A stretch of DNA of 64,000 nt from a virus (IMGVR_UViG_3300034071_001210:43893-107892); one strand, 5' to 3'. Positions 9,386 through 49,324 are shown, counted from the stretch's first letter. The notes: a model not told the origin generated them from the sequence alone. Program-made: numbers and translations.

Positions 9386-9392
9386 AAATGTA

Positions 9393-29178: not shown

Positions 29179-29434
29179 AAATACTTTAAAATTTTTGAAT
29201 AAACTTTCTGGGTCTCTTTGGGGCCCAGAATTTTTTATGGCATATCGTGTATTTTGAGGTATGGGGTACATACCCCCTGCAAAAATTTTATGGCATATCG
29301 AGTGTTTTGAAGATATTTGAGAAAATTTGAGGGCGATCTAGCCGAACCCATGTCCGGTATTTCTAGTGTGTCCAAATTCACTGTTTGGACACTCTGAAAT
29401 TCTCACAAATAATAATTTAAATTTATTTAATAAA

Positions 29435-29461
29435 CAACACAGCCCCTTGCGGGGCTGTGTT
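29435..29461. terminator. GC-rich hairpin ending the leftmost cassette
   Basis: AACACAGCCCC-TTGC-GGGGCTGTGTT. Confidence 0.75.
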
Positions 29462-29468
29462 GGGTCAC

Positions 29469-29726
29469 TCATTGCACCTCGGGTGGTTCGTATCCCTTGC
29501 GGTAATCGCCCCCGCCGTTGCGGTCCGAGTCATCCTCGGGTGCCGAGTAGTCGAATGGGGGATCGATGTCGCTATCGTCCCCCCACACATCGTGCATGTC
29601 ATACCGCATCTTCTCGCGTTCCATAGCTTCAACCTCCCTATCCCAACAGGCAGGGCAGGCGCATGCAGCGGAACCCAGTGTGCAGGTGCGAGGAGTTTGA
29701 TCGTTATTGGCGTTGGTGCAGCTCAT
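29469..29726 (-). CDS. Leaderless early protein, Cys/acidic
   Basis: ATG 33 nt after promoter motif; CTLGSAACACPAC. Confidence 0.7.
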   Translation of the reverse strand: MSCTNANNDQTPRTCTLGSAACACPACWDREVEAMEREKMRYDMHDVWGDDSDIDPPFDYSAPEDDSDRNGGGDYRKGYEPPEVQ

Positions 29727-29759
29727 ACGAGAATTATACACGAATTTGTCGTGACTGCA
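29727..29759 (-). promoter_or_regulatory. Cassette promoter P1
   Basis: TGCAGTCACGACA-N8-TATAAT-N6-ATG. Confidence 0.85.
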
Positions 29760-29877
29760 GCATAGCAGCACGAATAAATTTATATTCGCGTAACCTGGCA
29801 AACCTGGCCCCACCTGGCAAACACAGGCAACAGCCCCCCTTTCGGGGGGCTGTTGGTTCCCTTCCCTCCCTCGAGGG

Positions 29878-30174
29878 TTATCCGCGGTTCAGGTAGCGTT
29901 CGTATGACTCGTCGTCCATCCGTTCGCCTGTACCGCTGTAGTAGCGGTCATCATCCCCTTCGCGGGGTTCATCCTCATCGTGGCAGGCGGGACCTGCATC
30001 ACAGGCACCCTCGCATGACTCACGATCCGCCTGTGCGTCCAAGTGTTCCTTCAAGTCCGCATCGCGGTCTGCGGCTTCGGTGCATCCGGGGCATAGCCCG
30101 TCTACGTATTGATCCATGCTCGTGCAGGTGCAGGGTAGGTCTGAGTGATTGACGGTGGTGGTGGTGTTTGCCAT
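29878..30174 (-). CDS. Leaderless early protein, Cys/acidic
   Basis: MANTTTTVN; CTC...CPGC. Confidence 0.7.
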   Translation of the reverse strand: MANTTTTVNHSDLPCTCTSMDQYVDGLCPGCTEAADRDADLKEHLDAQADRESCEGACDAGPACHDEDEPREGDDDRYYSGTGERMDDESYERYLNRG

Positions 30175-30207
30175 GTCGGTATTGTACTCGATCTTGTCGT
30201 GACTGCA
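30175..30207 (-). promoter_or_regulatory. Cassette promoter P2
   Basis: TGCAGTCACGACA-N8-TACAAT-N6-ATG. Confidence 0.85.
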
Positions 30208-30223
30208 GCGCAGGGGGTGAAAT

Positions 30224-30424
30224 TTATTTGTTGCAGCGCAGGGTTTCGCAGAACGCATCGTTGTCTGCCAAGTTCGCAGCGAGTTGATCGAGTTCCTGCG
30301 GAGTCATCGCGGCAAACTTAAACGCGGCAACTTCGGCTTCCAATTTGTTGATGCGAGCGTGCAGCGCAGCGATATTGTCCTGATTGACTTTCCATTCCGA
30401 GGGTATGTAGTTCTTTGGGTGCAT
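30224..30424 (-). CDS. Leaderless early small coiled-coil protein
   Basis: ATG at the fixed distance from P3. Confidence 0.7.
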   Translation of the reverse strand: MHPKNYIPSEWKVNQDNIAALHARINKLEAEVAAFKFAAMTPQELDQLAANLADNDAFCETLRCNK

Positions 30425-30457
30425 GGCGGTATTGTACGATACTTTGTTGTGACTGCA
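30425..30457 (-). promoter_or_regulatory. Cassette promoter P3
   Basis: TGCAGTCACAACA-N8-TACAAT-N6-ATG. Confidence 0.85.
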
Positions 30458-30505
30458 GGCCGCAGGCCGTCACCAATTTATCTAAATTTATTTGTGCTCC
30501 CCATC

Positions 30506-30538
30506 TGCAGTCACAACAAACTATCGTACAATACACTC
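30506..30538 (+). promoter_or_regulatory. Cassette promoter P4 (divergent from P3)
   Basis: TGCAGTCACAACA-N8-TACAAT-N6-GTG. Confidence 0.85.
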
Positions 30539-30928
30539 GTGCTACAGAACACCACCTCCACCCGTCCGATCCACTTCCACCTCCAAGCCTCGACTTTGCC
30601 GCTCTCCGCAATTCTGCTCGACCTGCCTGCTAACCTCCCTGCACGCTCCGCGTTCTTGTACAGCGTTCTCGACTCCGGTTGGATTCGTGTTGCGTTCCGC
30701 AAGGATGACGGCACCTGCACGATTCGACTCTGCACTCGCAACCCTACGCTTGTTGCCAAGTTCGGTTCGCGTTACGATGTTCAGGGTATCAAGAATTCGG
30801 AGTTCAATTCAAACGGTCTTGAAACCATCGTGTACTTCGACCATGCGGCAGGTGCGCTCCGGTGCTTCCGTGTGATGCGAGTCGATGGCTGCGGCATCGA
30901 TGCCGTCAGTATCGAGAACAACCACTAA
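30539..30928 (+). CDS. WYL_2/SH3-barrel protein
   Basis: IRVAFRKDDGT..IRLCTRN...YFDH....RCF; in-frame GTG at the promoter-defined position. Confidence 0.7.
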   Translation: MLQNTTSTRPIHFHLQASTLPLSAILLDLPANLPARSAFLYSVLDSGWIRVAFRKDDGTCTIRLCTRNPTLVAKFGSRYDVQGIKNSEFNSNGLETIVYFDHAAGALRCFRVMRVDGCGIDAVSIENNH

Positions 30929-30973
30929 CCCGAACGGGGGGGAGAATTTAAATATTCTCTCCCCCTCCGCGGC

Positions 30974-31006
30974 TGCAGTCACAACAAGATCGCGTATAAT
31001 GCACTC
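30974..31006 (+). promoter_or_regulatory. Cassette promoter P5 (no start codon at +1)
   Basis: TGCAGTCACAACA-N8-TATAAT-N6-ATA. Confidence 0.85.
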
Positions 31007-31090
31007 ATACCTACCCCGCCCGAAGCACCGCCCCTAAGTGGACAACCCCACTTCGAATGACAATGGGCACGCAGAGGCGGGGTAGGTTTC
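31007..31090 (+). ncRNA. Putative structured RNA or 5' leader
   Basis: 12-bp closing stem ACCTACCCCGCC/GGCGGGGTAGGT starting at the predicted TSS; inner helices GCCC/GGGC and AAGTGG/CCACTT. Confidence 0.5.
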
Positions 31091-31124
31091 CCGGTCACTC
31101 AAACTTAACTGAAAGGTCACAACA

Positions 31125-31322
31125 ATGCTCAAGATGATTATCGATGGTGGCTACCAAATGGTTTATGACGCTCAAGGATTGTGGGCTACCCTTGCTCACG
31201 GGTACACGATTGCCCCGGGACAAGAGTTGCAGTTTGCAGAACTCTTTCACTCCGGTACGGACGAGGAACGATTGCTGATCCGCAACAACTTGCTTCACCA
31301 GAAGCAGATGGAACTAATCTAA
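31125..31322 (+). CDS. Hypothetical protein
   Basis: GAAAGG RBS. Confidence 0.7.
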   Translation: MLKMIIDGGYQMVYDAQGLWATLAHGYTIAPGQELQFAELFHSGTDEERLLIRNNLLHQKQMELI

Positions 31323-31377
31323 CGAGGTGGTGCTCGAGACAAGATCCACGCCCCTTCGGGGGCGTGGATCTCATTGA

Positions 31378-31419
31378 TCTACTATCAGCACAGCCCTCTG
31401 GGGCTGTGCTGATAGTTGT
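31378..31419. repeat. ACTATCAG hairpin element H1
   Basis: 16-bp perfect stem 31381-31416 with TCT/TGT flanks. Confidence 0.9.
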
Positions 31420-31478
31420 GGTGGACGGTATGGATGCCGCCGATAACAAGAATATGAAATAAATTGTACACCCTACCC

Positions 31479-31511
31479 TGCAGTCACGACAATATCGCTT
31501 ACAATACGCCC
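31479..31511 (+). promoter_or_regulatory. Cassette promoter P6
   Basis: Consensus motif; ATG at 31512. Confidence 0.85.
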
Positions 31512-31964
31512 ATGCTCTGCACCACTTTCAACAGCGTCTTTGACCTCTTCGCCTCTAACTTCCGTTTCGCCGAGTGCCTGCGTTCCCCCCTCAAGACTGA
31601 GGTCGTGGATGAATTCACGATCCGCAACCGTTCCAACTACACTCGTGTTGAGTGTGGCAATACTTGGGGTTGGGTTGCAGACCTGAATGTCGGTGGCTTG
31701 CGTATCGCTCACACGAACGGATCGAACATGGCTGATGTGTCCACCCGTTCGCTCGATACCGATCACCAAGTGCGTTGCTCATATACTGCGGACGAACTCC
31801 GCAAGATGGCGTACACGATGTTGGCTGCGGCTAACCACATCGACACTCGCGATTCGGAGAAGAATCAACTACTTCGCCGTCCGAACGGTCAACCGCTCCG
31901 TAAGGAGTTCGTATCGTCCCCCGACTTTGACGAATACCTGAAGTACGAACTGAAGGCAGTCTGA
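31512..31964 (+). CDS. Leaderless early hypothetical protein
   Basis: Start set by P6. Confidence 0.75.
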   Translation: MLCTTFNSVFDLFASNFRFAECLRSPLKTEVVDEFTIRNRSNYTRVECGNTWGWVADLNVGGLRIAHTNGSNMADVSTRSLDTDHQVRCSYTADELRKMAYTMLAAANHIDTRDSEKNQLLRRPNGQPLRKEFVSSPDFDEYLKYELKAV

Positions 31965-32017
31965 ACCCTGGAAGGGAGGGACTAGAAAGAAATGAATAAT
32001 TTCTAGTCCCCCCCGTT

Positions 32018-32050
32018 TGCAGTCACGACAAACTAAGGTACAATACGCAC
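32018..32050 (+). promoter_or_regulatory. Cassette promoter P7
   Basis: Consensus motif; ATG at 32051. Confidence 0.85.
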
Positions 32051-32188
32051 ATGGCAGAGAACACCACCAAACCGGATGAAACCCCCCGCAAACCAATTCG
32101 CTGCAACGAAGGCACAGCCCGGGAAGCACGGCTGCGCGACTGCATTCGACTGCTCACCCCAATGAAAGTTCGCAAGGTATCGACATGA
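32051..32188 (+). CDS. 45-aa leaderless protein (absent from ORF track)
   Basis: MAENTTKPDETPRKPIRC...; ATGA overlap with next ORF. Confidence 0.7.
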   Translation: MAENTTKPDETPRKPIRCNEGTAREARLRDCIRLLTPMKVRKVST

Positions 32189-32421
32189 ACAGCACCCTCG
32201 AAATTACCCGGATCCGAAAGACAACCCGGACAATTGAACTGAACCCCAAAGAAATCGCCATCCTCCAGGATATGATCTTTCGCAGGAAGGTAGAGACAAG
32301 ATTGGAAATGAACGGTTACACCTACCGTGATGAATACGGTTCAGACTTTCAAATCGAAGCGGACTTCTACTATAAAGCGTTGGGATTTCTTCAGACCAAA
32401 CTTGACAACCTCACCAAGTAA
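32185..32421 (+). CDS. Hypothetical protein
   Basis: Translationally coupled ORF. Confidence 0.7.
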   Translation: MNSTLEITRIRKTTRTIELNPKEIAILQDMIFRRKVETRLEMNGYTYRDEYGSDFQIEADFYYKALGFLQTKLDNLTK

Positions 32422-32436
32422 AGGTAGACTACCAAC

Positions 32437-32700
32437 ATGAAACACGTTCCCAAGTCTCTGCTGTATGCTCAAGTGGACAACATCAACGCCGTATTGCAGA
32501 CCAAGCCCGGTAACCGATTAGTTCTGCAACACGCCTTCGGCGGGTTTCAGTTGCAGCAAGAGGTTATGTACCCTCCGTCATGTAGTGTAGGATTCATTTC
32601 AATCTCGACCGACTATGTGAGCAAGCGTGAAATGAACGATTATCTGAACGCACTTGTGGTGGGCATGGCACTCCGTGCTAACCAAGTGCAACCGATCTAA
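32437..32700 (+). CDS. Hypothetical protein
   Basis: AAGG RBS; LQHAFGGFQL. Confidence 0.7.
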   Translation: MKHVPKSLLYAQVDNINAVLQTKPGNRLVLQHAFGGFQLQQEVMYPPSCSVGFISISTDYVSKREMNDYLNALVVGMALRANQVQPI

Positions 32701-32771
32701 CGAGGTGGTGCTCGCAACAACTGAAGAGGATTCGTCCCTGCCCACCCTTCGGGGTGGGCTAGGTTGTTATA

Positions 32772-32810
32772 TCTACTATCAGATTTGGCCCCCCCAAATC
32801 TGATAGTTGT
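32772..32810. repeat. ACTATCAG hairpin element H2
   Basis: 14-bp stem 32775-32807, CCCCC loop. Confidence 0.9.
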
Positions 32811-32828
32811 GGATGGGACGGGACGGCC

Positions 32829-32848
32829 TGTGGATAACTTGTGGATAA
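32829..32848 (-). promoter_or_regulatory. Two tandem perfect DnaA boxes
   Basis: TGTGGATAA (= TTATCCACA) at 32829-32837 and 32840-32848. Confidence 0.55.
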
Positions 32849-32877
32849 GTATTTCAAATAATTTTATGCTCACTTGC

Positions 32878-32910
32878 TGCAGTCACGACAATATCGCTTA
32901 CAATACCGAC
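32878..32910 (+). promoter_or_regulatory. Cassette promoter P8
   Basis: Consensus motif; ATG at 32911. Confidence 0.85.
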
Positions 32911-33495
32911 ATGAACACCACCACCACCACCAACGTCCGAAACCGAGCCTACTACGCCGCAGAGAATGCTATCCTCAACTGCCGTGCTACTATGAACTTC
33001 CGCTCTCTTGCCGAGTGTGCTACGCCCGATGTCCGTGCTGCTGCCGAGACATGGTACGCCGAGGCGGGTCAGTTTGCTCGAGACCTCCCGCGTCACGATT
33101 GGTCATTCGAAACTGCCTGCGCTGTAGTCGCGGCATTCTCGCCTCGGATCCGATGGGATCAGAATAAGCGTAAGGCGTTCCAATACGCTCATGGCATCAT
33201 GCCAAAGGGTCTGCGCTCCCATATTGCCGCCGCAGACCGATGCGTAGCCAAAGGATTCGATGGCTTGGATGGTCTGAAGACAAACGCCTTTGCCCGGGCT
33301 ATTGCCGGGGATCTGAATGCGGTCGTGATCGACATTTGGATGTGTCGGGCTGCGGGGCTCGGTAAGGATTCGCTGACAACCGGACAGTACCGTGCAATTT
33401 CCGATGCCGTGCGAACGGTAGCCCGGGAGCACAACATGGCTCCCGCCGTTATGCAGGCACTGATTTGGATCGTGGTCAGGGGGAAGGCACAATGA
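32911..33495 (+). CDS. Conserved phage protein, possibly HhH DNA-glycosylase-like fold
   Basis: WY, AAFSPR..W..N, GLKTNAF, VVIDIWM, MQALIW motifs. Confidence 0.6.
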   Translation: MNTTTTTNVRNRAYYAAENAILNCRATMNFRSLAECATPDVRAAAETWYAEAGQFARDLPRHDWSFETACAVVAAFSPRIRWDQNKRKAFQYAHGIMPKGLRSHIAAADRCVAKGFDGLDGLKTNAFARAIAGDLNAVVIDIWMCRAAGLGKDSLTTGQYRAISDAVRTVAREHNMAPAVMQALIWIVVRGKAQ

Positions 33496-33629
33496 ACCAC
33501 CGCCCCGGCAAATTCGTCCACGATGCCTTTCGCGAAGGGATTCGCCTGCGCTCCAAAACCTGGGGCAAGAAAACGCGGGATCCCCGGAAGGCTCGGAGGG
33601 ACGGGAAACAGGAACTCCGTTCAATCTAA
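33492..33629 (+). CDS. Small basic protein (45 aa)
   Basis: ATGA overlap; MNHRPGKFVHDAFREG. Confidence 0.55.
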   Translation: MNHRPGKFVHDAFREGIRLRSKTWGKKTRDPRKARRDGKQELRSI

Positions 33630-33662
33630 CAATATCACCGGAAACGGTGATATTTTTTATTA

Positions 33663-33703
33663 TCTACTATCAGGATTTGGCCCATCTAAATCCTGATAGT
33701 TGT
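33663..33703. repeat. ACTATCAG hairpin element H3
   Basis: 13-bp stem plus G-T/G-C pairs, 33666-33700. Confidence 0.9.
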
Positions 33704-33762
33704 CCAGGACGGGATGGACTTGACCGATAATAATAATATGAAATAATTTGTACACCCTGTGC

Positions 33763-33795
33763 TGCAGTCACGACAATTTGTATTACAATACCGAC
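33763..33795 (+). promoter_or_regulatory. Cassette promoter P9
   Basis: Consensus motif; ATG at 33796. Confidence 0.85.
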
Positions 33796-34191
33796 ATGAA
33801 GAACGCCACCTCCATCATCTCCGTCCTCCTCATTCCCGCAGACCTCACCAAGCCATGCAGCATGGTCAACATCCGTAAGGGTGACTACGCTCTGATCGAT
33901 ATGTACAAGTGGATGGACTGCGACTATGTGCAACGCCTCGAAACTCCCAAGAAGAACATGATTCTGTGGGTTGACGAAGAGGGAAGCATCGAGTCGCTCA
34001 AGCGCAAGCCTGTACTCAATGTTCGCGGCAGTATTCTTGCCGGACAGCCAATCATGGGCAACGTGATTCTTGCCGGACAAGATTCCCTGTACGGTGTTGA
34101 CGGTATCGAGTTTGGTACCGTCAAGGAAATGATCAAGCGTCTTGAGAACAGCGCACAGCAAGTGATTGCCGAACATCCTTCCCTGAAATAA
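33796..34191 (+). CDS. DUF3846-like protein
   Basis: LWVDEEG, LNVRGS, IMGNVIL motifs. Confidence 0.7.
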   Translation: MKNATSIISVLLIPADLTKPCSMVNIRKGDYALIDMYKWMDCDYVQRLETPKKNMILWVDEEGSIESLKRKPVLNVRGSILAGQPIMGNVILAGQDSLYGVDGIEFGTVKEMIKRLENSAQQVIAEHPSLK

Positions 34192-34263
34192 TGAGGTGGT
34201 GCTCAGGGGGATGGGATTCGTTCCCATCCCCTACCGCCCTCAAATAAATCTTTCTTTCTTCTG

Positions 34264-34296
34264 TGCAGTCACAACAAACCCAGGTATAATACTCAT
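34264..34296 (+). promoter_or_regulatory. Cassette promoter P10
   Basis: Consensus motif; ATG at 34297. Confidence 0.85.
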
Positions 34297-34596
34297 ATGA
34301 CAATGACAACCACCGACATCTCTGAACTTCGTACTCTCCTCTCAGGAGGATATGTCGTAAATGTTTCCTTCACAAAGAAGGACAGGACAATACGCGAAGC
34401 CCAGATCACTCGTAACCTGCGATTGATGCCGATGACATCTCATCCAAAGAATGTTCGTAAGGTGGATCCGAAATACATCTTCGCGTTTGATATTGATAAG
34501 CAAGATTGGATTTGCTTTCACGAATCACAGTTCGTTTCATTGTCTCATCCTTGGCGCTTGGAGAACGAACAACTAGCATTATGCCAGGGGGCTTGA
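34297..34596 (+). CDS. WYL_2/SH3-barrel protein
   Basis: VSFTKKDRTIREAQITRN...FDIDKQDWICF. Confidence 0.75.
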   Translation: MTMTTTDISELRTLLSGGYVVNVSFTKKDRTIREAQITRNLRLMPMTSHPKNVRKVDPKYIFAFDIDKQDWICFHESQFVSLSHPWRLENEQLALCQGA

Positions 34597-34706
34597 TCAG
34601 CCCTATAACCGCCATCGGTGCAACGAGAAGCGGCAGTATGAGAGTCTCAATAGAGTCCTGGGCTTATACTAATAGCCACCCTTCTTTAAGGGTGGTTATT
34701 TTATTA

Positions 34707-34748
34707 TCTACTATCAGGAAGTCGCCCCCTCGACTTCCTGATAGTTGT
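34707..34748. repeat. ACTATCAG hairpin element H4
   Basis: 15-bp perfect stem 34710-34745. Confidence 0.9.
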
Positions 34749-34803
34749 GGACGGCATGGACGGTACCGATAACAAGAATATAAAATAATTTGATATACCT
34801 GTT

Positions 34804-34836
34804 TGCAGTCACGACAGGATCGTATACAATACCGTC
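34804..34836 (+). promoter_or_regulatory. Cassette promoter P11
   Basis: Consensus motif; ATG at 34837. Confidence 0.85.
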
Positions 34837-35028
34837 ATGACCACACCCGAACCTTATAACACCGTTGAAGACTTCATGGATACCGATGAACCCACCGAGG
34901 CTGAAATGATTGCCGAACTGATGGAGGAAGGCTACACACAGGACGAAGCCAAGCGTATGATCGGTGACGAGTACGATGCCGATGATGAAGACTCCTACGA
35001 GCCACTCGAAGACGAGGATTCAGAATGA
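34837..35028 (+). CDS. Very acidic small protein (possible DNA mimic)
   Basis: 63 aa, D/E-rich, leaderless. Confidence 0.7.
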   Translation: MTTPEPYNTVEDFMDTDEPTEAEMIAELMEEGYTQDEAKRMIGDEYDADDEDSYEPLEDEDSE

Positions 35029-35339
35029 GTTACAAGATGACCATCCATATGAAGAAAGCCAGGGCAAGCCCCTTTGAGAAGACCTTTGAAAGACGAGCAG
35101 AGAGAATGCTCGCTCTTGTGATGCGTACTCTTGTCAGAGTAGACTTTGGTGACAAGGATGTAGGAATCTTTATTGAGAACTGCCCTATGGTTAACATCCC
35201 GATGGGATTTCTAAAGTTTGATGACAAGCGTTGGACGGGAAAAGAAATTGCTCAGTTTTGCAAATATATTGATCTTTCTTCTGAGTTTGGCGTTAATGTC
35301 ACCTTCCTCGACCCCGAACCTGTTACAATACCAACATGA
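35025..35339 (+). CDS. Hypothetical protein
   Basis: ATGA-coupled. Confidence 0.7.
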   Translation: MSYKMTIHMKKARASPFEKTFERRAERMLALVMRTLVRVDFGDKDVGIFIENCPMVNIPMGFLKFDDKRWTGKEIAQFCKYIDLSSEFGVNVTFLDPEPVTIPT

Positions 35340-35554
35340 TCCCATCCACCACCAACATCTCCGACCTGATTGAAACCATTCGCAAGTTTGTCGATGAGAC
35401 TCCGGATTGGATGGAGAGCGACAAATATGTTGCTAGGCTTGGAGTTGCATACCACATTCTCACAACAATGTCTGACCCGGATATGGTCACAGACGAAGAG
35501 TACGAGTTCATCATCGCCATTCACAACACCATCAAGGAACGGAACGCACAATGA
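35336..35554 (+). CDS. Hypothetical protein
   Basis: ATGA-coupled. Confidence 0.7.
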   Translation: MIPSTTNISDLIETIRKFVDETPDWMESDKYVARLGVAYHILTTMSDPDMVTDEEYEFIIAIHNTIKERNAQ

Positions 35555-35895
35555 GTACAAACAAGTTTGAAGGATTCTTCGAGAGTGACAACCACCCCGC
35601 CATGAAGATGGTTGTTCCAACACCATCACAGATCATTGAGACTCTGATGATGATCTGCGGACAGAATCATCAGTTCTACAAGGATGCAAGCATTCGCCTT
35701 ATCATCTGTGGTGGACTTGATGTTGTCGAGAAGCACATCATCAAGGCTCGTGATGAAGGACGGGATCCCGGCATTCATGTTGGCTACGCAGCCTTTATGA
35801 TGCTTCTTGCGGATCGCATGGTGGATTCGTATGATGACTACGCAGGTGACAAAGAACGCGAACTGTTTCCTCTTCAGTATGATGAGGATGAATGA
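35551..35895 (+). CDS. Hypothetical protein
   Basis: ATGA-coupled. Confidence 0.7.
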   Translation: MSTNKFEGFFESDNHPAMKMVVPTPSQIIETLMMICGQNHQFYKDASIRLIICGGLDVVEKHIIKARDEGRDPGIHVGYAAFMMLLADRMVDSYDDYAGDKERELFPLQYDEDE

Positions 35896-36054
35896 TTTCA
35901 ATACACAGCCTCACATAAGTCAGTTAAATTAGAGCGCAGTAGATGCTTCGAAATTACGACTGCCGTGGGGCAACCGTAGCAGCCAATTTCCTGGCTTGCC
36001 GTATGAAAAAAGGTATGCGGGTGGAGACCCGGCTACAACAGGGTCTCCAAGTTT

Positions 36055-36127
36055 GGGAACGTAGCGCAGTTGGTAGCGCAAATGACTTTTAATCATTTGG
36101 TCGTGGGTTCGAGCCCCACCGTTCCCA
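36055..36127 (+). tRNA. tRNA-Lys(UUU)
   Basis: Cloverleaf GGGAACG/CGTTCCC, anticodon loop CTTTTAA, TTCGA T-loop. Confidence 0.93.
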
Positions 36128-36137
36128 CTAAGGAGAT

Positions 36138-36383
36138 ATGATGAAAACGGCAGAAATTAAAACCTTGCAGAAGACATTGAAAGCCATCAAAGACAATGAC
36201 GTTAAAGATGCTGTTCACTATATGATTAAGTTTCTACATGAACACGGTCATGCAGTTGCCATCTTCACGCCAGAGGAAATGGTTGAAACTACAGCCACAG
36301 ATGAGGAGATTGAAGAGTCGATGATTACTGCTGGGTTTATGACAATGGATTGCTTTAAGATCAACAAAGAAGAAGACGAATAA
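36138..36383 (+). CDS. Hypothetical protein
   Basis: AAGGAG RBS. Confidence 0.7.
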   Translation: MMKTAEIKTLQKTLKAIKDNDVKDAVHYMIKFLHEHGHAVAIFTPEEMVETTATDEEIEESMITAGFMTMDCFKINKEEDE

Positions 36384-36392
36384 GGAAACATC

Positions 36393-36689
36393 ATGACAGA
36401 TCGAGATCATTGTATGGAAGTCGTGAAGGCGTATGACAAAGTAACCATCGTGATGGATTGCATCATGGAGCATTGGTTAGAAGGCAACTGCAATCCACCC
36501 AAGGAACTGATCGATGAGTACTTCGAGACAAAGGATGCAGCCCTTCAGGCGTTGTATAATGACTTCGAGAACATCAAAGCGAATCAAGTCTTTGCTGAAC
36601 GAACTCGTGGTATGAACAGAGCATTTTATAAAAAAATTGATAAACAATTTGGAGTAACTGAAACGCCCATGTTGTTTGAAGAGGATTGA
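36393..36689 (+). CDS. Hypothetical protein
   Basis: AAGGA RBS. Confidence 0.7.
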   Translation: MTDRDHCMEVVKAYDKVTIVMDCIMEHWLEGNCNPPKELIDEYFETKDAALQALYNDFENIKANQVFAERTRGMNRAFYKKIDKQFGVTETPMLFEED

Positions 36690-36694
36690 TTTAC

Positions 36695-36767
36695 GGCACG
36701 GTAGTCCAAAGGCAGAGACAAACGACTTAAAATCGTTCAAGTGTGGGTTCGACTCCCACTCGTGCTA
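36695..36767 (+). tRNA. tRNA-Leu(UAA), short variable arm
   Basis: GGCACGG/TCGTGCT acceptor, AACGA-CTTAAAA-TCGTT. Confidence 0.88.
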
Positions 36768-36772
36768 CATCT

Positions 36773-36846
36773 ATTCCCGTAACTCAGTTGGATAGAGTAA
36801 CAGATTTCTAATCTGTAGGTCGTTGGTTCGAATCCAACCGGGAATG
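36773..36846 (+). tRNA. tRNA-Arg(UCU)
   Basis: ATTCCCG/CGGGAAT acceptor, ACAGA-TTTCTAA-TCTGT. Confidence 0.92.
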
Positions 36847-36977
36847 CTTGACTTGATTGAAAGGAGAGACATAATGTATTCAATACCATATTTTATGTTT
36901 GACGGTGTTCATAAAACCGTATAGCGGTAACCTACGGTTGCACGGACAAAGAGGCATCCGTATGAAGGCTTCATTAC

Positions 36978-37052
36978 AGAAGGGTGGCTGAAATTAGATA
37001 TAGCGCACACCTTATAAGTGTGAGTATATGGGTGCAATTCCCATCCCTTCTA
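36978..37052 (+). tRNA. tRNA-Ile(UAU), non-canonical T-loop
   Basis: AGAAGGG/CCCTTCT acceptor, CACAC-CTTATAA-GTGTG, T-loop TGCAATT. Confidence 0.8.
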
Positions 37053-37054
37053 TT

Positions 37055-37366
37055 ATGAAAACTATTAAAACTCATATTCCCCAATTTCACTTTGAACCAT
37101 TACTAATGATGTCTTGGCAAGTAGACCATGATGTGATCCATTTCAAGATGGAAGATGCTTTTGACATTGAAGAAATTGATCTTCGTTTAGTCGTTGGTCT
37201 TACTGATGATGGGATGCCTTCTGTTGATGAAGATGACATCATTGAGGCTGTTGCTGAATCCGTTTACGGTCATGAGTATGAGGTGTATCCGTACAAGGCA
37301 ATTCGTTTTCTGAAAAACGATTTGATTCCATATATAAACGAACATTTTCCAAAACCCATTTCATAA
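37055..37366 (+). CDS. Acidic hypothetical protein
   Basis: ATG directly after tRNA-Ile. Confidence 0.65.
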   Translation: MKTIKTHIPQFHFEPLLMMSWQVDHDVIHFKMEDAFDIEEIDLRLVVGLTDDGMPSVDEDDIIEAVAESVYGHEYEVYPYKAIRFLKNDLIPYINEHFPKPIS

Positions 37367-37466
37367 GTTCCTGCCCGTGAGAGTCGTCTGGGTCATACCA
37401 TCTTAATCTTCTTTAAGATTAAGATAACATGGGATATGACGCTCCTACACGGGCAGGAACTTTTTT
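37365..37466 (+). terminator. Long (~100 nt) hairpin followed by U-tract
   Basis: AAGTTCCTGCCCGTG/CACGGGCAGGAACTT outer stem, ATCTTAATCTT/AAGATTAAGAT inner stem. Confidence 0.65.
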
Positions 37467-37474
37467 ATTAATAA

Positions 37475-37516
37475 TCTACTATCAGGAGTTCCTTTATTGG
37501 AACTCCTGATAGTTGT
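37475..37516. repeat. ACTATCAG hairpin element H5
   Basis: 15-bp perfect stem 37478-37513. Confidence 0.9.
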
Positions 37517-37573
37517 GGATGGGACAGGACGTGACCGATAATAATAATGTCAAATATTTGCTCAACCCAATCT

Positions 37574-37606
37574 TGCAGTCACAACATTTGCGGTTACAAT
37601 GTACAT
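37574..37606 (+). promoter_or_regulatory. Cassette promoter P12
   Basis: Consensus motif; ATG at 37607. Confidence 0.85.
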
Positions 37607-38551
37607 ATGAACAGCGACAACTACAATTTCTTATCGTCTGATGTCTCCCTCGTCCCTGCCAAGAACGACACCTTCGTTCCGTGGGGTCACTTCGAGGACA
37701 TCGCAACCATCCTCGCCTCCAAGCACTTTGCTCCCGTGTACATCACGGGTATGTCGGGCAACGGCAAGACCACTATGGTCGAGCAGATCTGTGCGTCTGC
37801 CGGACGCGAGATCATTCGCGTCAACATCACCGCCGAGACTGATGAAGATGACCTCATCGGTGGATTTCGTCTTATCAACGGTGAAACCAAGTTCGTGTTC
37901 GGTGGCGTGATTCAAGCCATGCAGCGTGGAGCGATTCTGCTCTTGGATGAGATCGACCTTGGTTCGGAGCGCATGATGTGCTTGCAGCCTGTGCTTGAAG
38001 GCAAGGGCATCTATGTGAAGAAGATCAGTCAGTATGTGCGTCCTGCTGCCGGGTTCAACATTGTTGCTACTGCCAACACCAAGGGCAAGGGCGAGTCTGA
38101 TCGGTTTGTCGGTACTCGTGTTATGAACGAAGCGTACCTTGATCGGTTCTCGTATTGGTTCGAGCAGGACTACGCGGACAAGACCATCGAAGCCCGTATC
38201 ATCATTCGCAAGATGGGTGCATTCGGCAAGGTGGACAAGGAGTTTGCTCAGTACCTCACGAAGTGGGCGGATACAATTCGTCTTGGCTTCAAGGAAGGTG
38301 GACTCGATGACATTATCACGACTCGCCGACTCGAAGAGATCTGCAAGGCATTCGCCATCTTCGGCAACAAGGAGAAGGCAATCAAGTTGACTCTGACGCG
38401 ATTCGATGCGTCAACCAAGGAGGCGTTCTACAATTTGTACACGAAGATCGACCCAACAATTCTGCCCGTGCCTGAAGGCATGGACAAGCCAATTCAGTAT
38501 GCAGGACAGCAGCCTGTTGCTCCGGACACTAACTACGCCGTTAACGCCTAA
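37607..38551 (+). CDS. MoxR/CobS-like AAA+ ATPase
   Basis: GMSGNGKT Walker A, LLLDEID Walker B, ATANTKGKG, NEAYLDRF, ITTRRL. Confidence 0.92.
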   Translation: MNSDNYNFLSSDVSLVPAKNDTFVPWGHFEDIATILASKHFAPVYITGMSGNGKTTMVEQICASAGREIIRVNITAETDEDDLIGGFRLINGETKFVFGGVIQAMQRGAILLLDEIDLGSERMMCLQPVLEGKGIYVKKISQYVRPAAGFNIVATANTKGKGESDRFVGTRVMNEAYLDRFSYWFEQDYADKTIEARIIIRKMGAFGKVDKEFAQYLTKWADTIRLGFKEGGLDDIITTRRLEEICKAFAIFGNKEKAIKLTLTRFDASTKEAFYNLYTKIDPTILPVPEGMDKPIQYAGQQPVAPDTNYAVNA

Positions 38552-38569
38552 CCGAAAGAGGACACTACC

Positions 38570-38848
38570 ATGCCATATCTTAACAAGCGCAATCGTTTCA
38601 TCGCAGCCGCAAAGCAGTACGCCGAGGATCACAAGAAGAATAATTTCTTCTTCACCAAGGACGAACTCAGGACAATCGCTTCTTCCATCAACATGAAAGG
38701 CGCACCAACCTGGGTGTTGAATGAATGCAAATGTGATGTTCGTACTCTTGCTCACAGCAAGAAGTGCTACGACATGAGTGCTTTGATTCAGCCTGTTTCA
38801 GTTCCCGTGATGGTTCCAAGTATTGTGGTTCACCCAGTCTCAGTCTGA
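38570..38848 (+). CDS. Hypothetical protein
   Basis: GAGG RBS; lies between AAA and VWA genes. Confidence 0.7.
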   Translation: MPYLNKRNRFIAAAKQYAEDHKKNNFFFTKDELRTIASSINMKGAPTWVLNECKCDVRTLAHSKKCYDMSALIQPVSVPVMVPSIVVHPVSV

Positions 38849-38914
38849 CGCTGTTTGTAGTGTTTAATGTGACATAGACACGACCTCTCCCACTCGTTGT
38901 GGGTGAGGTTGCTG

Positions 38915-38955
38915 TCTACTATCAGGATTCGGCCCCTCTGAATCCTGATAGTTGT
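38915..38955. repeat. ACTATCAG hairpin element H6
   Basis: 13-bp stem plus G-T/G-C pairs, 38918-38952. Confidence 0.9.
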
Positions 38956-39014
38956 GAAGGACAGGATGGGACTGGCTGATAATAATAATATGAAATAATT
39001 TGGTGGGTATGGTT

Positions 39015-39047
39015 TGCAGTCACGACAGTATCGGTTACAATATGCAC
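39015..39047 (+). promoter_or_regulatory. Cassette promoter P13
   Basis: Consensus motif; ATG at 39048. Confidence 0.85.
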
Positions 39048-41126
39048 ATGAACACATCTCTCTCCATCTTCGCCAAGGCACTCGCGTCCGAAAACCTCTC
39101 GTTCTCCTTTAGCAACAAGGCTGAGACTGCATCGTTCGATGTCAAGTCCCGGCACCTCGTCATGCCCATTTGGAAGGTTTCCGAAACGGTGCAGACCATG
39201 TTGATCGCCCATGAGATCAGTCACGCCCTGTGGACTCCTTACGAGTTGTCCCGTACTCTCCTTGATGCTGCCGAAGCCGAGGGGTACAAGATCGACAAGT
39301 TGCAGCGTATCGCCAACATGATCGAGGATGTTCGTATTGAGAAGTTGATGAAGCAGAAGTTCCCCGGTACTCGCCGTGACTTCTTCTTGGGGTACAAGGA
39401 GATCAACGACCTTGACCTCTTTCAGTTCAACACCTTGGACTTGAGTGCCATGACTCTCAACTCTCGCCTCAACATTCACTTCAAGTGGGGTGTTCCGGGA
39501 TTCATTGATGTTCAACTCTCTGCCCAAGAGCAGGAGATCGCGGATATGGTGGACAGCGTTGTCACTTTCGAGCAGTGCATCGAATTGGCAAAGTACCTGT
39601 ACGGTGATCCGGATGCTGATGGCAAGAAGCATGAAGTCGAGGACAACAACAAGGGTTTGGCATTAGGAAACTCTATCGATGGTTCTCAAGATCCTTCGTT
39701 TGAGAATATGTTGAGTGGATTGGCAAGTCGCAAGGGTTCGCCGTTGGCTTCCACGACTGTGGTCATCGGTGGAGTGAAGGACTTGAACCGACAGATCATC
39801 AGCACCGAGCAGGTGTTGGAATCGTTCACCATTCATCCTTGGGCAGAAGAGACTCTCAACAACACCCCTGACCTCACGGCATACCGTACCTTCGTCCGTG
39901 AGTCTGATGCATTCGTTCGTCAGTTGGTTGCTCAGTTCGAGCGCAAGAAGGCAGCGGACGAGATTCGCCGTGAACGCCCAAAGCAGACGGGTCAGTTGAA
40001 CCTTGATCGTCTTCATCAATACCGCACCCATGACGATATCTTCCTGTCGAAGATCGTTAAGAAGGATGGCAAGAATCACGGGGTCATCTTTATGATCGAC
40101 TTCTCCGGTTCGATGCAGCCTACGCTCAATCACGCAATCCTTCAGGTTCTTCAGTTGGTTTGGTTCTGTGAGAAGGCAAAGATTCCGTTTGAGGTGTTTG
40201 GCTTCACCGATGTTGGTGAGCATTACATTCCGAACCAACCCGGTTTCGTCAAGGGTCAGGATTCACTTGCGAATGAAGCGCATACTTGCCGTAACAGTAT
40301 TCGCTACGGTGATGCTCGACTGATTACGCTTGCTTCATCCCGTGACGATGCGGCAAAGCGTGAACAACTTCTTGCCCTTGTCTACGAGACTTTCGTAACC
40401 AACACCCGTATGACTCCTGCAACGCTTCGTCTGAGCGGAACCCCAACGGTGGAAACTGTGGCTGTTGCTTCACAGTTTATGAAAGAGTGGATTGTGGCAA
40501 ACAATGTGCAGATTCCTACGCTCATGGTTGTCACGGACGGTGAGCCAAATGGTTTCAACCTTGTGAACGATGCCACAGATTACACCACCTATGGTGATGC
40601 AGGAAGTCTGACTGTGGTGAACCATGTTGCCGATACCGTGACTCGAACTACGATTACGAATCGTGACAATCTGTCGAACGCAGTCATCAGTACGATGCTT
40701 GATTCGATGCGGACAAAGTTTGGTGCGAGAATCGTTGGAATGTTTGTTGGTGGTAACAAGGCATTGCCTACCGGGATTTACAATAAGTTCTGCATTGCAT
40801 ACAACGAGAACAACTCGTACCAAGATCACGAACGATACTTGGCTGCAAGTGAGATGTACAAGTCTGAAGGTTGCATTCTTGCTCACTCCGAATGCTCACA
40901 AGGATACGATGAGTTCTTCATCATCAAGACTCCGCAGATCGTCAAGGACGAGGACGCGATTGCCGATAGCGGAACCTTCACCAAGATCAAGAACACCTTC
41001 ATTCGTACAATGGGTAAGCGTTCTTGCAGTCGAGTGTTCCTCTCACGGTATGTGGACATTGTGTCCGGACAGCCTATTCGTAAGGGGGCTGATGCTCTCT
41101 ACGGAAAGAAGACGGCTAATGCATAA
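39048..41126 (+). CDS. CobT-like protein: N-terminal HExxH domain and C-terminal VWA domain
   Basis: AHEISHALWTP, NMIEDVRIEK, MIDAS DFSGSM, LSGTP, VTDGE. Confidence 0.88.
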   Translation: MNTSLSIFAKALASENLSFSFSNKAETASFDVKSRHLVMPIWKVSETVQTMLIAHEISHALWTPYELSRTLLDAAEAEGYKIDKLQRIANMIEDVRIEKLMKQKFPGTRRDFFLGYKEINDLDLFQFNTLDLSAMTLNSRLNIHFKWGVPGFIDVQLSAQEQEIADMVDSVVTFEQCIELAKYLYGDPDADGKKHEVEDNNKGLALGNSIDGSQDPSFENMLSGLASRKGSPLASTTVVIGGVKDLNRQIISTEQVLESFTIHPWAEETLNNTPDLTAYRTFVRESDAFVRQLVAQFERKKAADEIRRERPKQTGQLNLDRLHQYRTHDDIFLSKIVKKDGKNHGVIFMIDFSGSMQPTLNHAILQVLQLVWFCEKAKIPFEVFGFTDVGEHYIPNQPGFVKGQDSLANEAHTCRNSIRYGDARLITLASSRDDAAKREQLLALVYETFVTNTRMTPATLRLSGTPTVETVAVASQFMKEWIVANNVQIPTLMVVTDGEPNGFNLVNDATDYTTYGDAGSLTVVNHVADTVTRTTITNRDNLSNAVISTMLDSMRTKFGARIVGMFVGGNKALPTGIYNKFCIAYNENNSYQDHERYLAASEMYKSEGCILAHSECSQGYDEFFIIKTPQIVKDEDAIADSGTFTKIKNTFIRTMGKRSCSRVFLSRYVDIVSGQPIRKGADALYGKKTANA

Positions 41127-41147
41127 GGCTTAGTAATACAAAGCACA

Positions 41148-41185
41148 GACCCCGTACCTGGAAGGAGAGAGCCAGGTACGGGGTT
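41148..41185 (+). terminator. Hairpin after VWA gene
   Basis: ACCCCGTACCTGG/CCAGGTACGGGGT. Confidence 0.65.
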
Positions 41186-41196
41186 ATGTCATTGCA

Positions 41197-41235
41197 GCTA
41201 CTATCAGATCCTTCTTTTCAGGATCTGATAGTTGT
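41197..41235. repeat. ACTATCAG hairpin element H7
   Basis: 13-bp perfect stem 41200-41232 followed by GGACGGGATGGACGG. Confidence 0.9.
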
Positions 41236-41368
41236 TATCGGACGGGATGGACGGTACGGACGATAACCGCGGATGGCCTCAAAGATTCTGTAATAAATTC
41301 GAGCTAATCTGAATTGTGGTACAGTTGCTTGACTACCCCCATATATGGTGTATAGTATAAGTCTGTTC

Positions 41369-41674
41369 ATGCGCCCTATAATCCCCGAGTCCTACGTGAA
41401 ATATTCTCGTCCTTATAGGACTCGGGGTTATGGGACGTTACATGTTATCGGTATGTCATTTCTTCTCAGTATTCTGAGCCTTGCATTGGTTATAGGCTGT
41501 GCTATACTATTCATGATACTCGCAGGTATTATTCACCCTTCCAGAATACTCGGACAGTATTCAGCTGGACAAGATTCTCAAAAAATTCTGAATATTTCTG
41601 AGGGCCCAGAAGAAAAAATCTACTATCAGGGCTTCCTGGATGTCTACCGTATGCGTAGGCCGGACGGGATCTAG
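41369..41674 (+). CDS. Possible membrane protein (doubtful)
   Basis: Hydrophobic stretch; TTGACT promoter at 41329; 3' end overlaps a degenerate hairpin element. Confidence 0.35.
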   Translation: MRPIIPESYVKYSRPYRTRGYGTLHVIGMSFLLSILSLALVIGCAILFMILAGIIHPSRILGQYSAGQDSQKILNISEGPEEKIYYQGFLDVYRMRRPDGI

Positions 41675-42072
41675 ACTCGGACGGGACCTGGAGAGGGTTC
41701 GGCTACTCTCCTCTCTGGGTCCTGGACGGGATATAGCGTTTTGTAAGGCTATTGCAGTTTTTTAAGAATATTTGCGTACTTCCAGGTACTTCCTGGATGG
41801 CGTTTGTCAAATTCTCTAAGAAATTGCAAATATTTAATAAAATTTGTAGTATTTACTTGACTCGTAGAATCGATTCTAAGCCCTTGGGGGGTCTTGGACG
41901 CGATTTGATGCCTTGAAGGTGCTCAAAGGGCTCTAAGGGGGGTTCAGAGACGATTAGAGGGGGTTTGGGTGACACTCACTAACTGTACATCCCTCAAATT
42001 TTCTTTAAATTTCTTCACCCACTTAGTAATTTTCATTCCCCACAATGCCCCATAATACCCCACTCCATTATT

Positions 42073-42474
42073 TTAATCTTTTTTCTTCTCTTCTCCATCA
42101 ATATTTTCTAAATCTTTTTGAGTAATTACATATGCCTTGATACTCTTCTTATGTTCTATATCGTGTGCTTTCTTTACTCTATTCAATCCGTCTGCTACTG
42201 ATATGGTTCCATCCTTGAGTTTGATTCCCAATATTGGATAACTGGTATCTGCATCCATCATTCTTTTCTTGTGATTCTTATTATCCATATCGTATTGCTT
42301 GTTCCACCATTTTAATGCGTCTGTATCTTTGATGTCTACAGTTACTTGTTTAGTATGTTTTTTAGCCCATGCGTATACATCAGCAACTTTGTAATCCTTA
42401 TTGGTTACATCAGAATGCATTTTCTGATCTTTCCAATTTTCTGCTTCTGCTAAAAATTCTTTAAATTTCTTCAT
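42073..42474 (-). CDS. ParB/Srx-like protein with capsid-targeting leader
   Basis: MKKFKEFLAE; ADTSYPIL...VADGLNRVKKA. Confidence 0.7.
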   Translation of the reverse strand: MKKFKEFLAEAENWKDQKMHSDVTNKDYKVADVYAWAKKHTKQVTVDIKDTDALKWWNKQYDMDNKNHKKRMMDADTSYPILGIKLKDGTISVADGLNRVKKAHDIEHKKSIKAYVITQKDLENIDGEEKKKD

Positions 42475-42478
42475 GGTA

Positions 42479-42676
42479 TTACTCTCCTCCACCACCATCT
42501 CCACCACCTTCACCACCACTCTCTCCCTCTGTATTATGTTCATGTCCATAGAAATTAAACCCATAATATGGTGATGTATATCTCTTTGCTTTCTTCTTGG
42601 TTCTTTTCTTTTTCTTTTTGGGCATATCAAGATAAACATCATAGTTTTCTTCTAAAAATTCTTTAAATTTCTTCAT
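42479..42676 (-). CDS. Small basic protein with capsid-targeting leader
   Basis: MKKFKEFLEE; K-rich core, G-rich tail. Confidence 0.7.
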   Translation of the reverse strand: MKKFKEFLEENYDVYLDMPKKKKKRTKKKAKRYTSPYYGFNFYGHEHNTEGESGGEGGGDGGGGE

Positions 42677-43209
42677 TGTTTTGTTCCGTGTATAATTCCC
42701 TTTTCCAATTTTGCATCAGGAAATGTTACTTGTACTGTCTTTAAATAATCTCTTAATCTTTGATTTCGTTGCCATGAGTCTTTTCCAGTCTGCTTTCCTG
42801 CTCCCGATCTATCTCCTTCGTAAACATCAACATAGACTCTTCCACCCGGTTTCAGGGCATCGTGGGCTTGTTGAAGTACTGTATGATGATCTGTCTCATC
42901 CTGTATGACATTCAGTACATTGAAGAGTGATGCGGTATCTGCCTGCCCTGATCCGGCTGTTTGTAATACTCTTTCATTGTGGTCGGCTGGTCGATTGTAT
43001 GGATCATAAACATAAGCACGTACTTGACGATCTCCCAAGAAGTCTGTTCCCATATCATGTTTACCACCACCAATGTCAATATGAGTCGTATCTTTTTGCC
43101 AACCATGAAGTTTCTCTACAGTTTTAAAGGCTTGGGCTACTTGAGGTCTTGAAGTTGCCGCAGAAGTAATATTCTGGTCTTCTAACAAAAATTCTTTAAA
43201 TTTCTTCAT
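42673..43209 (-). CDS. Class I SAM-dependent methyltransferase with capsid-targeting leader
   Basis: MKKFKEFLLE; IDIGGG, YDPY, NVLNVI, LKPGG. Confidence 0.8.
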   Translation of the reverse strand: MKKFKEFLLEDQNITSAATSRPQVAQAFKTVEKLHGWQKDTTHIDIGGGKHDMGTDFLGDRQVRAYVYDPYNRPADHNERVLQTAGSGQADTASLFNVLNVIQDETDHHTVLQQAHDALKPGGRVYVDVYEGDRSGAGKQTGKDSWQRNQRLRDYLKTVQVTFPDAKLEKGIIHGTKQ

Positions 43210-43265
43210 GGTATAATATTTATTGAATAGTTGACTTATTGGTATTATGTTCTATAATTAATCCC

Positions 43266-43805
43266 ATGAGAAATGCAAATTTACCTTATCACCTATATGT
43301 AAATGTTAAAAATTCATTTCTTGGGCAGAATATGCCTGATGGGTATACACCTGCCATGTGGCACGCTGTGTATTCTCGTCCCGGTCAGTTGATCTGCTGC
43401 CATGTGATTCTTCAATCAGGTGCTCATTGGTCAGGTCTTCCGTTGTCTGCCTTATCGACTACTGATGTATTTGATGATAATAGTAATATTAACATTCAAC
43501 CTTGGGGTGGAATGGGAAATAATATTGAAACTTTTATGGCAACCTACTTAGAAGGGCTTTCCGTGAATGTCTTTCGTGCAGAAAAAGAGGGTAGGCACAC
43601 CGGAATTATACTTGATTGGGAAGATGGGTATTCTCGTTACCCTGCTGAACATAAGCCTCTAAGTCTTATTGCTCTTGACTGTGGATACTTTGCTCTCGTT
43701 CCCAATAATTACTTTACGGTGAAGGATAAGCATTTTGTGAATGATAAACATTCAAATAATTTAAAATTTTATAAACGTGGTGAGACTGTCTATTGGGAGC
43801 GTTAA
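43266..43805 (+). CDS. Conserved phage hypothetical protein
   Basis: TTGACT...TATAAT promoter; SGAHWSGLPL, EHK, PNN motifs. Confidence 0.7.
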   Translation: MRNANLPYHLYVNVKNSFLGQNMPDGYTPAMWHAVYSRPGQLICCHVILQSGAHWSGLPLSALSTTDVFDDNSNINIQPWGGMGNNIETFMATYLEGLSVNVFRAEKEGRHTGIILDWEDGYSRYPAEHKPLSLIALDCGYFALVPNNYFTVKDKHFVNDKHSNNLKFYKRGETVYWER

Positions 43806-44206: not shown

Positions 44207-44262
44207 GGTACAATATTTATTGATTTAATTGACACACATCTTGAGTGTGTTATACTACATCA

Positions 44263-44721: not shown

Positions 44722-44758
44722 TACTTTACTGTTGGTGATCTTGATGTATACTAACTCT

Positions 44759-45193: not shown

Positions 45194-45223
45194 CATTTAC
45201 CCTACATAAGGTATCATATTGGT

Positions 45224-45460: not shown

Positions 45461-45462
45461 AA

Positions 45463-45726: not shown

Positions 45727-45727
45727 A

Positions 45728-45910: not shown

Positions 45911-46042
45911 TATGACTAACTTTGTAAGTTTTGTTGCTATTATGGCTGCTCTTGTACTTGGACTTGCAATACTTTCAATTGGTTTTGCCGTTGTATTATC
46001 AATTGCTATTCGTGCATTTGAAGCAAATTAATAAGGATTCTA

Positions 46043-47443: not shown

Positions 47444-47451
47444 GAAAATAT

Positions 47452-49316: not shown

Positions 49317-49324
49317 ATTATTAT

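Follow-up and report, generated by a model that had tools for sequence, protein, structure and literature searches.

The stretch of DNA considered here, which we refer to as the window, comprises 64,000 nucleotides (nt) of the viral sequence IMGVR_UViG_3300034071_001210 (43893-107892) and comes from a T4-like myovirus, with neck and baseplate proteins, gp32, gp16 and the start of gp17 encoded within it. Our focus is an island at positions 29340-41980, where the G+C content (GC) is 49% as compared with 37-38% in the 5-kb flanks; per kilobase it ranges from 0.43 to 0.54 over 29-42 kb and from 0.26 to 0.41 in the rest of the window. A preliminary description had recognized this GC-rich block of ~12 kb, although its borders of 29435 and 41700 have to be moved to 29340 and 41980. 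The cargo includes the WYL_2 genes (two), the tRNAs and the AAA+/VWA pair noted at that time, along with DUF7178 and DUF3846 genes. The pair consists of a CobS-like MoxR AAA+ ATPase (37607-38551, plus strand; AAA_5, phrog_249) and a peptidase/VWA partner protein with HExxH and DxSxS motifs (39048-41126, plus strand; phrog_459, phrog_5298), and a tRNA search places tRNA-Lys(UUU), -Leu(UAA), -Arg(UCU) and -Ile(UAU) at 36055-37052 on the plus strand with small genes in between. Third codon positions have a GC of 0.59 in island genes and 0.20 in genes outside. The four tRNAs decode AAA, UUA, AGA and AUA, codons whose use is 21, 3, 4 and 2% inside the island and 71, 44, 51 and 30% outside (a contrast of 2-21% vs 30-71%, p<1e-19). 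Island codons thus appear to suit a GC-rich host and the island tRNAs the codons of AT-rich genes, a strategy that has been described for AT-rich myoviruses in GC-rich hosts (PMC3152331).

For comparison we used ~70 contigs that have the promoter box described below in common with the window (close relatives), ~16 more distant loci with CobS (79-85% identity), and the near-complete relatives G002 and G003 as whole-genome stand-ins for the window phage. Each relative genome (~126-141 kb) contains one such block, to which the motifs are restricted, and the G002 and G003 contigs both start and stop inside it. What the preliminary description missed is that the borders of the island behave as physical genome ends. 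At the left (29300-29400, plus strand) a phased A-tract lies outside, followed by a cut, CT^AGC, at 29339/29340 and by conserved CCG...GGAC motifs inside. Eight whole contigs from eight assemblies start at the equivalent of position 29340 (L154, L155, L157, L180, L191, L193, L226 and L229) and a ninth start, L437, belongs to the distant G002 lineage; L426 duplicates L154 and was left out of the count. These nine independent assemblies represent six alleles from several studies, with the next other contig end more than 15 nt away, and a naive uniform model gives ~1e-19 for such a coincidence, an approximate count since the ends are not fully independent. CT precedes AGC in all sequences that cross the site, which is single-copy and neither a repeat nor a hairpin, and a branch in the assembly graph therefore does not account for the shared starts; the motif is conserved clade-wide, distant relatives included. 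Other contigs run across 29340, as expected if a second copy runs on into the flank.

On the right the cut is CT^AAC at 41980/41981, with a mirrored A-tract outside, and here two contigs end, L161 (80% identical) and one contig of run X2. The position coincides with a conserved switch from a G-rich to a C-rich strand behind a gene-free, motif-rich block (41560-42030, plus strand; conserved in ~13 relatives) that holds a half CTACTATC site at 41620, GGAC(A/G)GGAT repeats and A/T tracts. Read as its reverse complement the right flank mirrors the left, with a phased A-tract, a short spacer and T^AG in the window and four relatives. The distance from cut to cut is 12,641 bp in the window and ranges from 11,461 to 13,058 bp among four relatives. 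We also considered, and reject, an island that is excised or inverted: 57 of 57 flank joins are in normal order, and empty-site or inverted joins number 0 of 57.

We consider it likely that the block at 29340-41980 is a long direct terminal repeat (11.5-13 kb in the clade) that holds the immediate-early module of a freshwater T4-superfamily myovirus. The signature of such repeats is one peak of ends per orientation, with the forward one at the left (PMC5557969). A precise forward terminus of the SPO1/T5 type is found to the left of the block and, given this fixed left end, the random headful ends of the T4 superfamily, which have no fixed site, do not fit the clade. The fixed left end is well supported and the fixed right end partly shown. 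A number of points weigh against the terminal repeat: the evidence for the right end consists of two contigs that stop exactly there, a third that stops 8 nt short and the symmetry of the motifs, look-ups for more right ends having returned only contigs crossing 41980 besides this third one and a 14-mer scan of viral contigs having proved unspecific; the analysis is of assembled contigs only, whose depth (in run X2, 5.1 for the left edge, 8-15 for the interior and ~1 to the right) is a poor measure of doubled coverage; and one pac site, or two inverted ones, would give a similar picture. If packaging were of the headful kind and began at a precise pac site at 29340, or at two inverted sites, the island would be the first-packaged, usually redundant end of the DNA with no exact repeat. 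This explanation fits the much better support for the left end than for the right (nine vs two contigs), the T4 headful type of gp17 and the 2-3-fold read-density step beside the ORFan region of S-PM2 (PMC4503421), yet a single pac site predicts neither the two exact ends at 41980 nor a mirrored cut motif throughout the clade, and we hold it to be unlikely. As for the terminase itself, gp16, the small subunit (1415-1861; phrog_445), is encoded with the start of gp17 at 1-1861 on the minus strand and is a candidate trans-acting cutter; gp17 of G003 shares 46-51% identity with cyanophage gp17, and the gp17 of the clade is a normal cyanophage-like terminase of the T4 headful type. We give very little probability to the view that the shared starts were created by the assembly process and that the island is simply a hyperplastic region inside the genome, furnished with promoter/stem-loop (PeSL) cassettes. 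Contigs do end repeatedly at hairpins too (31384, 33669, 34742, 37481), an assembler effect, but position 29340 is no hairpin and is single-copy, and the very same base recurs across alleles, studies and a distant lineage at the low probability given above.

The island is assembled from repeated units whose counts agree with those given earlier: six of hairpin plus promoter (31381/31479, 32775/32878, 33666/33763, 34710/34804, 37478/37574 and 38918/39015), seven of promoter only (29733, 30181 and 30431 on the minus strand, and 30506, 30974, 32018 and 34264), a full hairpin that lacks the box (41200) and a half site (41620). The promoter box, TGCAGTCACRACA-N8-TAYAAT, occurs 13 times with 0 mismatches, where 0.01 copies are expected even allowing 2 mismatches, and the hairpin sequence ACTATCAG-N-CTGATAGT occurs 7 times with 0.00 expected; shuffled sequences contain nothing comparable to either set. 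Some details of the units call for correction: at 32775 two DnaA-box 9-mers replace CCGATAA, the promoter at 30974 heads a non-coding hairpin in place of a gene, and some of the upstream hairpins lack a U-tract.

Each promoter has TGCA at -33 to -30, a 17-bp spacer and TAYAAT at -12 to -7 relative to the start codon, together with an AT-rich tract near -50. In the close relatives ATG or GTG lies exactly 7 nt past the -10 element in 126 of 143 distinct promoters, the remainder being copies of the promoter P5, which would head a structured leader or RNA. The equivalent promoters of distant relatives (n=115) have the same geometry with TTGAC in 90 and TTGCA in 13, the box of the window being found in none, so that this box would be a lineage-specific -35 element plus spacer of a leaderless sigma70-type promoter rather than the non-sigma70 upstream element that had been suggested. 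The box has probably been homogenized by recombination, and a dedicated activator is conceivable but not needed.

The stem of the invariant-foot hairpin pairs at 99.6%, with eight constant outer pairs and six free inner ones that account for 48 double changes, almost no wobble and 25 different inner stems; one-sided changes are absent at 13 of 14 pairs. Throughout the clade the hairpin is located at the heads of orthologous operons, always between a terminator and the next promoter, and in the window it lies 92-104 nt upstream of the start codon. In distant relatives an inner stem and a spacer accompany the hairpin arms CTACTATC and GATAGTAG, and in one distant lineage (L077) only direct repeats of the right arm GATAGTAG are present, the long stem being gone; at L077:6560-6980 and 9380-9800 these repeats accompany tandem promoters, the first of which has no gene. 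The definition of REP/RAYT elements does not apply, as GTAG is 3' rather than 5' of the stem whichever strand is read, and no Y1_Tnp was found. We also note that the contigs L160 and L166 fold back at hairpin 3 within their first 150 bases and that L194:1041-1084 is a copy of hairpin 4 with an inverted loop, which could reflect either loop flipping or assembly chimeras.

Gene content differs among the close relatives, with junctions that fall in the units, mostly in promoter boxes and terminators. In hybrid promoters the upstream portion of a unit is fused to the gene of a different unit (P3>P2, P4>P6, P5>P6), extra promoter-plus-gene cassettes are inserted with a duplicated promoter at P5, P7 and P10, and the leftmost cassette is deleted from terminator to terminator in relatives. 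One hairpin-to-hairpin deletion was seen, in L206, where the DUF7178 cassette is missing from between hairpin 2 and hairpin 3; two further changes adjoin a hairpin foot, and the insertions and deletions in the tRNA cluster are unrelated to the units. Scored individually, hairpin copies have cognate flanks on both sides in 50 of 70 cases. The pattern is that of PeSLs, and cassette shuffling itself is a known design. An early module with co-regulating, shuffling repeats, as originally envisaged, is supported by these gains, losses and hybrid promoters, and cargo does change at the units, if mostly in promoter boxes and terminators, hairpins being seldom breakpoints. The proposal that hairpins are excision points is not supported, given their fixed places clade-wide, the crossovers elsewhere and the outcome of the recombinase searches: neither tyrosine or serine recombinase nor integrase, resolvase or Y1-HUH protein was found in five relatives or in 70 scanned non-core open reading frames (ORFs) of G003, negatives that were backed by direct Pfam scans since the RecA family search had missed UvsX, which tblastn located at 50% identity. 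The recombination genes present are those for UvsX, UvsY, UvsW, gp46 and gp47. Contigs of four runs compared with the island yielded no convincing circle; a 32701>31111 contig joint is a gene move also present in L216, and run X20 has one low-depth joint that goes back from unit 4 to unit 3. Contigs from RNA runs are uninformative on transcript starts or strand.

As to what the hairpin does, we lean, somewhat short of an even chance, toward a DNA-level inverted-repeat site for a putative phage protein. Terminators show 35 G.T vs 15 A.C pairs and the invariant-foot hairpins 10 vs 12, which may be a weak hint of a role at the DNA level. Two observations count against such a site: this contrast is marginal (p 0.03-0.07, from non-independent data), and in 21 of 42 distant hairpins the inner stem is followed by a T-tract, as for a terminator. 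The latter, the constant position between a terminator and the following promoter and the terminator activity of PeSL stem-loops (PMC2839356) would all suit a second, tandem terminator or an RNA insulator kept perfect by palindrome correction, with feet that have no binding role, a reading compatible with the terminal repeat. We regard it as rather unlikely, because a U-tract is absent from window-type copies, the feet are constant though the interior is free, L077 preserves the GATAGTAG arm as direct repeats though it lacks the long stem, and the lone half site at the right end is retained in all relatives. Invariant ends around a freely varying paired interior might instead recall an integron-like system in which the hairpins are attC-like single-strand sites and a dedicated recombinase excises and reorders cassettes, and the L206 deletion, the two changes beside a foot and the X20 joint could be read in this manner. 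Such a system is highly improbable, however, in view of hairpins that stay at fixed operon heads clade-wide rather than one site moving with each gene, their cognate flanks, the promoter boxes as the seat of most events and the failure to find an integrase, resolvase or Y1 protein in the set searched; in addition, attC sites typically have extrahelical bases and the stems here have none.

Turning to the individual elements, leaderless promoters with exact boxes precede genes on the minus strand at 29733-29759 (P1; gene 29469-29726), 30181-30207 (P2; 29878-30174) and 30431-30457 (P3; 30224-30424), and on the plus strand at 30506-30532 (P4; WYL_2 gene 30539-30928). P5 (30974-31092, plus strand, with its product) is predicted to yield a structured non-coding transcript of ~85 nt (31007-31092; z -5.5), conserved with one compensatory change in L045 and without an Rfam match; its interior is also conserved, and since no gene follows in L041, L045 and L193 the product is possibly a small RNA in its own right. 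P7 (32018-32044, plus strand) is followed by a first gene that varies in a comparison of relatives, and P10 with the second WYL_2 gene (34264-34596, plus strand) is where four relatives have an additional cassette. The complete units are all on the plus strand. Unit 1 (31343-31514) has an upstream hairpin, the ACTATCAG hairpin at 31381-31416, a GGA tract, an AT-rich UP region and P6; unit 2 (32739-32913) has a hairpin at 32775-32807, the DnaA-box 9-mers at 32829 and 32840, and P8 before the DUF7178 gene (32911-33495); unit 3 (33634-33798) has a hairpin at 33666-33700 and P9 before the DUF3846 gene (33796-34191); unit 4 (34686-34839) has a hairpin at 34710-34745 and P11 before a conserved small-gene/tRNA operon; unit 5 (37365-37609) has a 95-nt upstream hairpin, a hairpin at 37478-37513 and P12; and unit 6 (38877-39050) has a hairpin at 38918-38952 and P13. 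On the plus strand at 41148-41440 a terminator is followed by the hairpin at 41200-41232, then by a TTGACT-type promoter that is conserved (41328-41356) and finally by a long hairpin at 41360-41440.

The two DnaA-box 9-mers (32829-32848) are perfect, in tandem and retained in close relatives only. GGA tracts sit between terminator and promoter, and a role as a CsrA sponge was considered. Long stable hairpins or structured stretches at 37365-37465 (z -8.6), 41360-41440 (z -5.9) and 35905-36050 (z -3.2) are partly conserved and are candidate non-coding RNAs; at the gathering score neither the window nor any of six relatives had an Rfam match other than tRNAs. A 12-nt repeat, GAGGTGGTGCTC, stands right behind the stop codons at 31324, 32702 and 34193, and the gene at 31125-31322 is copied or moved beside such a repeat in L216, L143 and L209. 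Small conserved proteins flank the CobS-like ATPase, a 92-residue one at 38570-38848, for which the atlas has no family, and the product of a gene ahead of CobS in L076-L088; by eye they look like the N-terminal part of cyanophage CobS and are candidate DNA binders. An Arg/Lys-rich peptide of 45 residues (33492-33629) is shared by 13 of 17 islands in conserved form and might serve as an arm peptide that binds RNA or DNA.

The carrier phage has the T4-type set of gp13-23, gp32, gp41-47, gp55, UvsX/Y/W and a cyanophage-like gp17, and thus the core head, tail, replication and recombination genes together with gp16/gp17 that characterize the T4 superfamily; the closest named phages are cyanophages, at less than 60% identity. 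The window sequence is present in lake metagenomes and the clade is widespread in lakes and estuaries. The only lead to the host from the atlas is PEP-CTERM: a PEP-CTERM Pfam search was negative, genome scans were empty and a Lake Biwa paper contained no match. A GC-rich host, perhaps of the Phycisphaerales, is a guess; a protein with a PEP-CTERM-like sorting tail (44741-45193, plus strand) and dockerin-like proteins in G003 are unproven hints of a planctomycetotal (Planctomycetota) host. Outside the island the same leader, MKKFKEFL, opens several unrelated genes at 42073-50170 on the minus strand, which we take to be typical of head-packaged internal proteins, and in L250 (G003 40-57 kb) genes of the sugar-nucleotide, glycosyltransferase and methyltransferase kinds form a large cluster.

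Taken together, the best reading is that the borders of the island behave as physical DNA ends, fixed and mirrored, in a T4-type phage, which is unexpected because phages of this type normally cut their DNA at random positions, random headful ends being the textbook property of T4-like phages (PMC5557969). The terminase, presumably gp16/gp17, would cut twice, at mirrored sites in which an A-tract precedes T^AG, and virion DNA would in consequence begin and end with the block. On entry unmodified host sigma70 polymerase would fire the 13 UP-element promoters, whose anatomy is as described, with transcription beginning on the start codon's A; the resulting early messages would be short, leaderless and written in host-like codons, and four tRNAs would be supplied for the AT-rich genes expressed later. 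The breakpoints observed in the promoter box, in terminators and occasionally in the hairpin would come from ordinary homologous crossover, probably by UvsX/Y/W, and the hairpin would be a DNA-level inverted-repeat site at fixed operon heads for a putative phage protein with affinity for the end motifs as well. Feet, CCGATAA and GGAC repeats do recur at the left cut, the operon heads and the right-end block. A bolder and doubtful proposal is that the gp16/gp17 headful motor has become a two-site, sequence-specific cutter in this clade and that feet, CCGATAA and GGAC repeats bind one protein organizing the terminal repeat for packaging or staged DNA entry, akin to the first-step transfer of T5, thereby coupling early transcription to injection. 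Base-precise mirrored cuts around a block of 11.5-13 kb would offer a defined substrate for DNA recognition by gp16/gp17 and for long-repeat formation, GC-rich variable islands of uncultured T4-like genomes would be explained as chromosome ends that have been collapsed, and the termini of uncultured phages could be mapped from contig ends that coincide in public assemblies.

Among known systems, the SPO1 host-takeover region cited as a precedent in the preliminary description proved apt. Long, gene-rich direct terminal repeats that hold early or host-takeover genes are reported for SPO1 (13,185 bp), CampHawk, T5 and the Rak2-like CBB (22 kb) and XacN1 (66 kb, with tRNAs inside the repeat) (PMC5852040, PMC5259590, PMC5557969). 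Features in common with the island are a length of ~12-13 kb, as in SPO1, dense small early genes under their own strong host-type promoters, tRNAs for phage-preferred codons and a gene-free, motif-rich end block. CBB and XacN1 are only distant kin of T4, and unlike in this group the carrier of the island is a true T4-superfamily phage in which the cut sites are mirror images, the promoters are leaderless and the ends are deduced from contigs rather than virion DNA. The block works like the SPO1 terminal repeat and probably is one.

PeSL cassettes are known from RB49/phi1, T4/PST and KVP40/nt-1 (PMC2839356, PMC4122927), where crossovers lie between the -35 element and the start codon, and in PMC2839356 between the -10 element and the ATG. 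Like PeSLs, the units place a stem-loop, an AT-rich tract and a sigma70-type promoter (-35/N17/-10) before ORFans, have breakpoints within the elements, and gain, lose and exchange genes; variant -35 elements also occur in PeSLs (TTGYVH in nt-1). Unlike PeSLs they have no Shine-Dalgarno sequence, the 7-nt gap after the -10 element leaving no space for one, all are gathered in a single block with defined DNA ends, and there is a second hairpin with invariant feet and fixed positions. The cassettes thus work like PeSLs but are leaderless, and we do not class them as such. Within the T4 superfamily our search found hints of defined ends only for DLP6 (a 229-bp repeat; PMC5349666) and S-PM2 (the read-density step; PMC4503421), most subscription papers lying outside the search so that absence is no proof. 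Both depart from random circular permutation, as does the island phage, whose proposed repeat is ~55 times longer than that of DLP6, gene-rich and base-precise, with mirrored cut motifs conserved across the clade. Finally, cyanophage S-MbCM7 (NC_023587, ~42-52 kb) has a slightly GC-richer cluster of sigma70-like promoters, some of them leaderless, and resembles the island in its repeated non-sigma70 motif upstream of early promoters and in its AT-anticodon tRNA strategy (PMC3152331); the motif, A[CG]TG[TG]C[AC]C, differs from that of the island, and CobS and the peptidase are located in the replication block of S-MbCM7 but in the early block of the island.

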